Shown here one piece after another: positions 39,401-40,718 of a stretch of DNA of 64,000 bases. Within the stretch, counting starts at the first letter, position 1; each line of letters opens with the position of its first letter. Source of the stretch: Escherichia coli (GTDB taxonomy: Bacteria; Pseudomonadota; Gammaproteobacteria; Enterobacterales; Enterobacteriaceae). A program made the position numbers. The stretch lies in the NCBI RefSeq assembly GCF_045037415.1, contig NZ_CP173438.1; one strand, written 5' to 3'.

Positions 39401-40718
39401 CTGGCATGGCACGCCGTATCGTTATGGTGGCATGACGCGGCGCGGTGTGGACTGTTCGGGATTTGTGGTTGTGACGATGCGCGATCGTTTCGATTTGCAG
39501 CTGCCCCGTGAAACCAAACAACAAGCCTCTATTGGCACGCAAATTGATAAAGACGAGTTGCTGCCAGGTGACCTGGTCTTTTTCAAAACGGGTTCCGGAC
39601 AAAATGGTTTGCATGTAGGTATTTACGATACCAACAACCAATTTATCCACGCCTCTACCAGCAAGGGAGTGATGCGTTCCTCACTTGATAATGTCTATTG
39701 GCAGAAAAATTTCTGGCAGGCGAGACGAATCTAGTATGTCGAAAAATGGACGGCGATGATACATCGCCGTCCATTTACTCCTGAATACAGTAGTATTTTG
39801 CAGACAGAAATTCCGTAAATGGATTATTCGTTTATAATCAGGATAATCTAAAAAAAAGGACCCCTGAAAAAGTGGTTAACATGGAACAAATGAAAGTTAC
39901 TCCTTCTGTAATTGTTATGTCTTATGGCCTCATCCCTTTTAGCCGGATACTGAAAAACATCCTTCGAGAGGGACGGTTACCATGAAGATTTTTTTGGAGA
40001 ATCTTTATCATTCTGATTGCTATTTCCTGCCGATAAGAGATAACCAGCAAGACCTTGTCGGCGTTGAGTTAATTACCCATTTCTCCAGTGAAGATGGTAC
40101 GGTTCGTATCCCGACGAGTCGGGTTATAGCGCAACTTACCGAGGAGCAACATTGGCAATTATTTTCTGAACAGTTGGAATTACTAAAATCATGCCAACAC
40201 TTTTTTATTCAACATAAACTCTTTGCCTGGCTTAATTTAACGCCACAAGTGGCTACATTATTATTAGACAGGGATAATTTCGCAGGCGAACTATTAAAAT
40301 ATCCGTTTATTGAACTGTTGATTAATGAGAATTACCCGCATTTCAATGAAGGAAAAGATAATCGCGATCTTTTATCCTTATCGCAAATGTATCCCCTTGT
40401 GTTAGGTAATTTGGGAGCAGGTAATAGCACAATGAAAGCGGTGTTTGATGGTCTTTTCACCCGCGTCATGCTGGATAAAAGTTTTATTCAGCAACAAATC
40501 ACGCATCGCTCCTTCGAACCGTTTATTCGTGCGATCCAGGCGCAAATTTCCCCTTGTTGCAATTGCATCATCGCGGGGGGCATTGATACGCCAGAAATAT
40601 TGGCACAGATTATACCCTTTGATTTCCATGCTCTCCAGGGATGCCTGTGGCCTGCGGTTCCTATAAATCAGATAACGACGTTGGTTCAGCGATAACCCTC
40701 CTGTTTGCTGGTGTTTAG

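Follow-up and report, generated by a model that had tools for sequence, protein, structure and literature searches.

We analysed a 64,000-nt stretch of the Escherichia coli chromosome (RefSeq contig NZ_CP173438.1, referred to as the window) with the gene order btuD-nlpC-ydiV(rflP)-selO, and found that the leader of ydiV carries a conserved 31-codon upstream open reading frame (uORF) whose stop codon lies on the ydiV start codon. YdiV, or RflP, is the anti-FlhD4C2 factor that decides whether flagella are built in Salmonella and pathogenic E. coli, and nutrient-tuned bistability, evasion of the immune system within host cells and the pulsing of flagella in E. coli all rest on it. Judged by comparison among Enterobacteriaceae, the uORF is real and selection keeps its frame open. 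Its action is most likely in cis, and translation of the uORF as such, rather than the peptide produced, probably sets the amount of YdiV. The explanation that we favour, with moderate confidence, is a cis-acting uORF positively coupled to ydiV translation. The elements on which this proposal is built are:

39890..39985, + strand: the conserved uORF, with ATG at 39890, 31 sense codons (MKVTPSVIVMSYGLIPFSRILKNILREGRLP) and the stop TGA at 39983-39985

39982..39985, + strand: ATGA, in which the ydiV start overlaps the uORF stop, as seen in the sequence

39982..40695, + strand: coding sequence (CDS) of ydiV (rflP), a 237-codon ORF for the anti-FlhD4C2 factor and the presumed controlled gene, annotated rflP/ydiV in MG1655 and E. 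coli RefSeq genomes

39872..39889, + strand: in-frame 5' extension of the uORF (GTG 39872, ATG 39881), not kept between genera

A preliminary description of this region had started the ORF at ATG 39881, with 34 sense codons (MEQMKVTPSVIVMSYGLIPFSRILKNILREGRLP) and a TGA at 39983-39985 that overlaps the ydiV ATG at 39982-39984 in a CC-ATG-A arrangement. Both the sequence and the ORF list agree with these boundaries, and the overlap is plainly visible; the conserved start, however, is the second ATG at 39890, which gives 31 codons. Downstream of the preceding in-frame stop (TGA 39866-39868) the open frame holds three starts, GTG 39872, ATG 39881 and ATG 39890, and its longest version, from the GTG, has 37 codons. 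ATG 39881 shows weak pairing with the anti-Shine-Dalgarno (anti-SD) sequence (-3.0 kcal/mol), is replaced by AAG in two Escherichia lineages (L004 and L005), a change that creates AAGGAA, and is absent in most genera, including Salmonella, Citrobacter, Lelliottia and Intestinirhabdus.

The comparison covered 18 ydiV loci, namely the window and 17 further lineages: four other Escherichia species-level lineages, E. albertii, Salmonella, E. fergusonii, two Citrobacter, Intestinirhabdus, Yokenella, Lelliottia, Buttiauxella, one relative with 63% identity and three more divergent YdiV homologs. The nlpC-ydiV-selO synteny is conserved across the sampled lineages, and all 18 have an upstream ORF of about 31 codons at the equivalent position, starting about 92 nt before ydiV. 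In 11 of the 18 it begins with an ATG at -92, stops at the TGA in ATGA and counts 31 codons exactly. Two Buttiauxella-like lineages have TTG at -92 plus an in-frame ATG at -98, and the stop comes one codon sooner in Salmonella and one Lelliottia-like lineage (TAATG and TGATG). Yokenella (locus L012, ~1897-2019) has two open frames: the first begins at ATG -104/-101 and closes at ATGA, and the second, which begins at the homologous ATG (-91), reaches +19 and shares 20 nt with ydiV. Altogether, the uORF stop overlaps the ydiV start (ATGA, TAATG or TGATG) in 16/18 lineages, and the base following the ydiV ATG is A in every one of them (18/18) though the second codon differs (AAG, ATT, AAT, ATC, ATA).

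Selection for an open frame is also suggested by the distribution of stop codons. Over 15 lineages, the segment from -92 to -1 contains 2 stops in the uORF frame versus 40 and 25 in the other frames, and both of the former belong to two lineages with indels, which retain an ORF in a shifted frame. In this segment, genus-level lineages have a mean nucleotide identity of only 0.45, against 0.25 for random sequence, so the lineages are well diverged. The E. coli ORF on its own is not beyond chance: when the 140-nt leader was subjected to dinucleotide shuffles with ATGA retained, 5.7% of the shuffles gave an ATG-initiated ORF of at least 25 codons ending between -18 and +1 (P ~0.06), and significance comes only via conservation in other genera. 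The per-lineage probability of such an ORF is 0.05-0.15 by shuffling, and the product for nine lineages is 2e-10 if they are independent. Substitution-only decay from an ORF-bearing ancestor at 45% identity, a conservative null in which indels are forbidden, gives a retention of 0.115 per lineage, and five effectively independent lineages still give about 1e-4. We used the product and the decay simulation and set aside a Fisher combination of the shuffle probabilities, which is unsuited to a binary outcome. Conservation of the frame across Enterobacteriaceae had been named as a check in the preliminary description, and the frame indeed proved to be kept.

The peptide itself appears to be free to vary. 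Identity by codon position is flat in the uORF (0.42/0.46/0.47), in contrast to the ydiV control (0.63/0.73/0.37); amino-acid identity between genera is 0.20 in the uORF frame versus 0.21 and 0.19 in the wrong frames; and within Escherichia the ratio of nonsynonymous to synonymous substitution (omega) is 0.13-1.27, mostly 0.4-1.0, for the uORF and 0.11 for ydiV. Purifying selection on the uORF amino-acid sequence, as would mark a small protein, was thus not found. The preliminary description had linked equal variability of synonymous and nonsynonymous sites to a loss of the reading frame; the former is what we observe, whereas the frame is kept open. A free peptide in a preserved frame speaks for a uORF that acts in cis and against a functional peptide, and it is the lack of a conserved peptide sequence that makes action in cis most likely.

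Control of ydiV after transcription, which the preliminary description invoked, is indeed reported in the literature (PMC4173784, PMC7157525). E. coli laboratory strains (K-12) transcribe ydiV and translate it poorly, Salmonella translates the same gene efficiently, and nutrients were first thought to act on ydiV post-transcriptionally, the YdiV protein changing and the mRNA not (PMC4173784, PMC7157525). The papers reporting this control name no cis element or mechanism. Our literature search, whose reach did not extend to the primary translation studies (Wada et al. 2011, 2012), found no description of a ydiV uORF or leader peptide, and the ydiV promoter papers treat the entire nlpC-ydiV spacer as promoter DNA. 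The uORF ending on the ydiV start is a concrete, mutable element with which this unexplained control could be tested; if it is translated, fusions and pull-downs made with the 313-bp "promoter" fragment carry a translated leader.

The initiation signals of the two reading frames and the sequence predicted to connect them are:

39883..39885, + strand: GGA, the SD-like element of the uORF (AAGGA in most genera), 4 nt before ATG 39890 and also a candidate CsrA site

39966..39973, + strand: GAGAGGGA, the SD region of ydiV, inside the last uORF codons, with an anti-SD energy of -8.3 kcal/mol, which ranks close to the top 1% among random positions in the window

39933..39940, + strand: UCCCUUUU, inside the uORF and predicted to pair with the ydiV SD (39966-39973) in the minimum free energy structure of the E. 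coli sequence

The SD-like GGA, which precedes the -92 start by 4-5 nt, lies at -99/-98 in 10 of 13 lineages and at -100 or -94 in two more, Salmonella alone lacking it. The uORF has an anti-SD energy of -3.3 kcal/mol in E. coli; most other genera reach about -5 to -6, and E. albertii reaches -11.7. Divergence within Escherichia is 0-11% over the 36 nt that precede the uORF ATG (0-5.6% relative to E. coli), versus 16-23% for the uORF body between distinct Escherichia clades. Structure prediction gives the E. coli ydiV ribosome-binding site (RBS) a pairing probability of 0.76, the uORF body contributing 0.60. For the ydiV initiation region, the predicted pairing across lineages is 0.5-0.85 and involves mostly sequence inside the uORF; in 15 of 16 lineages it exceeds that of the A-rich uORF initiation region, with a mean predicted difference of 0.22.

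From these features we infer that the uORF is translated and that the coupling is positive. It is proposed that ribosomes enter at the uORF initiation region, which is A-rich, has little predicted structure and bears a GGA/AAGGA SD-like motif, traverse the uORF segment predicted to pair with the ydiV SD, and then terminate on the ydiV start (AUGA). Translation of the uORF would unmask the ydiV RBS and/or permit re-initiation, and YdiV synthesis would track the rate of uORF initiation. The uORF initiation region would then be a natural target of a trans-acting factor such as CsrA or a small RNA, and a factor acting there could account for the reported post-transcriptional control of ydiV.

Several observations weigh against positive coupling. 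The SD of the uORF in E. coli is weak (-3.3 kcal/mol) and that of ydiV is strong, so that ydiV could initiate independently. Shuffled uORF bodies also give a pairing of 0.5-0.7 with the ydiV RBS, the whole E. coli leader folds no more stably than its shuffles (z = -0.74), and neither the uORF/ydiV RBS region nor the 5' leader contains a helix that is conserved or covarying between genera (0 pairs by RNAalifold). The uORF ends 16 nt before the ydiV ATG in E. albertii, through a 1-nt deletion, and 5 nt before it in the 63%-identity relative, which indicates that strict stop/start overlap is not essential. No CDS is annotated at the uORF in the MG1655 RefSeq record or among the 30 RefSeq records listed. 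The small-ORF supplement of Stringer et al. 2021, as far as it was accessible, has no entry at the uORF, and the accessible main text of Weaver et al. 2019 does not mention it; in addition, the Salmonella small-protein census supplements contain only ydiV expression rows and the Entero67K small-ORF (smORF) supplements hold no match to it. Finally, in the work of Weaver et al. overlapping upstream smORFs can raise or lower downstream translation, and the sign of the effect is therefore not readable from geometry.

Positive coupling may be extended by a role for CsrA, an idea that is plausible but that we hold only tentatively, at a fairly low probability: CsrA, bound at the conserved GGAs of which one forms the uORF SD, would repress uORF initiation and hence ydiV, a mechanism with precedent in ORF27-iraD. 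The E. coli leader has five GGAs at positions kept between genera (about -140, -122, -99, -37/-30 and -11), and over 13 lineages 48 GGAs are observed versus ~29 expected, an enrichment that is not significant in any single lineage. One of these motifs lies in the middle of the uORF:

39945..39947, + strand: GGA within GCCGGAUA (UACAGGAUG in C. freundii), with a GGA at -37 or -30 in most lineages

We take GCCGGAUA, like its C. freundii counterpart UACAGGAUG, to resemble the CsrA SELEX consensus. CsrA is reported to regulate YdiV translation in Salmonella, according to PMC4173784, which cites Wada 2011; in Salmonella, though, the GGA at the uORF SD is missing, and nutritional control of YdiV persists in a Salmonella csrA mutant (PMC4173784). 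Ribosome footprints on ydiV rise 2.3-fold (+1.21 log2) in an E. coli csrA mutant (Potts et al.). This rise is largely matched by RNA (+0.77, +0.53), and the change in ydiV translation efficiency (+0.44 log2) is not significant. Nor is there a peak on ydiV in the E. coli crosslinking and immunoprecipitation sequencing (CLIP-seq) data of Potts et al., and ydiV is in none of three other lists of CsrA targets. These expression and binding data likewise weaken the case for control through uORF initiation.

The main rival to positive coupling is a repressive uORF, which we regard as unlikely. Ribosomes crossing the ydiV SD and terminating on its AUG would block independent initiation there, lowering YdiV and adding to its attenuation in K-12. 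The conservation evidence suits this account and coupling equally; the last five uORF codons contain the ydiV SD; ydiV is reported to be poorly translated despite that strong SD of its own (PMC4173784, PMC7157525); and Weaver et al. saw higher downstream expression for some overlapping smORFs when the smORF start was removed. The combination of a 4-nt AUGA overlap, a structured downstream RBS and an open upstream RBS (both predicted) is, in contrast, that of classic positive coupling, as shown for ORF27-iraD, and the efficient translation reported for the E. coli gene in Salmonella argues against a purely cis-encoded block. The latter report is also the reason for dropping another cis account, in which weak translation in E. 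coli would result from the change of the uORF SD from AAGGAA to AUGGAA; we did not adopt it.

A more speculative reading, to which we give rather little weight, makes the uORF a post-transcriptional sensor of the YdiV circuit, in which nutrient or translation status, or else a host-specific trans-factor, would act on initiation, elongation or termination within a fixed 31-codon frame and thereby set the amount of YdiV. The near-invariant length combined with a free peptide hints at a switch dependent on ribosome position rather than at simple coupling. If true, it would explain nutritional control and motility bistability in Salmonella, and also why K-12 transcribes ydiV and barely translates it.

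It is quite unlikely that the uORF serves mainly to shorten an untranslated stretch, either the 247-nt spacer or the ~137-nt leader, and thereby guards the message against Rho-dependent termination or RNase. The length of the spacer, co-transcription of ydiV with nlpC in Salmonella and the unconstrained peptide would suit such a function, and in the iraD case mRNA decay was sped up on loss of uORF translation. It leaves unexplained, however, why the stop falls on the ydiV start in 16 of 18 lineages and why the uORF begins at -92. Being compatible with coupling and not exclusive of it, an anti-polarity or stabilising role is a possible addition to positive coupling.

A small protein acting in trans, for example a small membrane protein, is very improbable. 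The ORF is conserved, and by inspection the E. coli peptide MKVTPSVIVMSYGLIPFSRILKNILREGRLP, with its hydrophobic N-terminal half and basic tail, looks like a small membrane protein with a single helix; hydrophobicity is not consistent among the peptides of other genera, no match to Pfam or NCBIfam was obtained, and the identity no better than in wrong frames, the flat codon-position profile and an omega of ~0.4-1.3 all speak against it. In a collection of 15 billion proteins the E. coli uORF occurs solely as unnamed or "hypothetical" gene calls, and the uORF peptides of other genera are absent. A chance ORF, which the preliminary description had allowed for, would need only an AT-rich leader that is open in one frame and an A-initial second ydiV codon to supply the TGA, and it draws on the P of ~0.06 in E. 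coli alone, on how common A is after ATG and on the silence of the accessible parts of Stringer et al. and Weaver et al.; it is nevertheless the least probable reading, very unlikely because the frame is kept in 18/18 lineages at ~45% nucleotide identity with 2 stops versus 40 and 25, to which are added the exact 31 codons in 11/18 and a retention of ~0.12 per lineage under the indel-free null.

The positively coupled uORF would have to be on the ydiV mRNA, and the organization of the spacer (247 nt, GC 0.38) bears on this:

39748..39772, + strand: terminator-like hairpin after nlpC, GGACGGCG...CGCCGTCC, with a weak T-tract, seen in the sequence

39830..39849, + strand: block conserved between genera, GTTTATAAT-CAGGATAATCT, with a perfect -10 hexamer TATAAT at 39833-39838 followed by GGA at 39841-39843

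39858..39860, + strand: second conserved GGA (AAAGGAC) in the 5' leader, with a GGA at about -116 to -124 in 11 of 13 lineages

In the cross-genus alignment the conserved block reads GTTTATAAT-CAGGATAA(T/G)CT. It is probably the proximal ydiV promoter and the 5' end of the leader, with a transcript start near 39845, to judge from these motifs. In Buttiauxella (locus L015, 859-1833) a LacI-family regulator gene is inserted between nlpC and ydiV, and the uORF and the CCAGGATAA block are still directly upstream of ydiV. Since both stay with ydiV, they belong to this gene and not to the nlpC 3' region, and retention of the block that bears the -10 hexamer suggests a proximal promoter. In Salmonella the nlpC promoter is reported to drive ydiV too (PMC3367168, citing Wada 2011b), which would place the spacer on the mRNA. 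The uORF is thus on the ydiV mRNA whether transcription begins at the proximal or at the nlpC promoter.

Several candidate RNA elements in this region were tried and rejected. A small hairpin formed by the second GGA and the uORF SD has compensatory-looking changes in Salmonella and E. albertii and is absent or not significant elsewhere. An Rfam scan of 39000-41000 gave only matches far below threshold (27 bits versus a gathering score of 100), and no known cis-regulatory RNA was thereby recognized; one of these, to rli40, is simply the nlpC terminator hairpin. A fusion of the uORF to YdiV by programmed -1 frameshifting at CUG-AAA-AAC was discarded by inspection as well: GAAAAAC does not fit the heptamer X XXY YYZ, and other genera do not keep the A-run.

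Within E. coli the region is nearly uniform. It was found in 5404 of 5426 complete genomes at an identity of at least 97.7%, and MG1655 is the same except for one upstream single-nucleotide polymorphism (SNP) and an A-run of 7 rather than 8. In six diverse strains, the sequence from the -10 box to the ydiV ATG is invariant save for the length of this A-run and one substitution in CFT073, and SNPs pile up just upstream of the -10 box. The A-run (39850-39857, in the 5' leader) has 8 A in the window, 7 A in MG1655, CFT073 and O157:H7, and reads AATAAAA in HS4. In uropathogenic E. coli CFT073 (locus L016), the substitution at 39974, between the ydiV SD and the ATG, gives GGGAAGG for GGGACGG; it is silent in the uORF frame, where CGG becomes AGG (both Arg), and makes an AAGG nearer the ydiV start. 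According to PMC7157525, RflP is active in pathogenic strains but not in K-12, and for this reason the CFT073 substitution may matter.

Some annotated proteins extend into the uORF region. The natural variant P0007 (274 aa, from a cluster of 14 member sequences at NCBI) has the 37-codon upstream frame fused to YdiV (…ILKN-HPSRGTVT-MKIFL…), which fits a 1-nt insertion after AAAAAC, and P0014 is another such fusion; if the uORF is translated, strains of this type would produce an N-terminally extended YdiV. For the YdiV homologs of L020 and P0067 the annotation gives 252 aa, with the start placed at an in-frame ATG that precedes the homologous one by 15 codons. This start annotation is probably wrong, since the extension falls within the uORF region.

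YdiV is itself an unusually fast-evolving protein, with an identity of 73-82% among Escherichia species-level lineages (dS, the synonymous divergence, ~0.8-1.0) and ~50% between genera. The E. fergusonii protein is 49% identical to that of E. coli and is thus more distant than those of Citrobacter (54%) or Salmonella (52%). The pattern suggests allele replacement or accelerated divergence at the ydiV locus. P0035, a YdiV homolog of 236 aa, is the same as the E. coli protein over its first ~77 residues and then strongly diverged (68% overall). A recombinant allele and a chimeric assembly are the two explanations, and the source of P0035 is an 899-bp ENA contig.

The arrangement can be compared with several known systems. 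Leader peptides such as trpL, hisL and tnaC share with it a short leader ORF in which translation, not the product, would carry the regulatory information. Unlike them, the uORF overlaps ydiV with no intrinsic terminator in between: a scan of the + strand over 39600-40100 found no terminator-like site, and among the lineages compared there is no conserved run of regulatory codons, stalling motif or terminator/antiterminator structure, so an attenuation leader is not indicated. The smORFs of Weaver et al. 2019 are a second comparison. Those such as yoaL and the smORF upstream of pssA are leader smORFs that overlap the downstream CDS in another frame and alter its expression, up or down, as is proposed for ydiV; they were detected by ribosome profiling of start sites, whereas the ydiV uORF is known from comparative evidence.

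The system most similar to ydiV is ORF27 (idlP)-iraD of E. coli (Park et al. 2017, PMC5574718). In both, a short uORF (27 codons in iraD versus 31 here) lies in the leader of a regulator gene, and its stop overlaps the downstream start, the overlap at ydiV being ATGA (39982-39985). The downstream SD is in or near a sequestering structure, which for ydiV is predicted. Both leaders contain several GGAs, one of them at the uORF SD, and the downstream gene is post-transcriptionally controlled and influenced by CsrA. The two differ in that translation of ORF27, its coupling to iraD and CsrA footprints have been demonstrated, while E. coli ydiV has no CsrA CLIP-seq peak and possesses a strong SD of its own. 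Taken with these likenesses and differences, the ydiV uORF is a probable and apparently undescribed case of a translationally coupled leader ORF.

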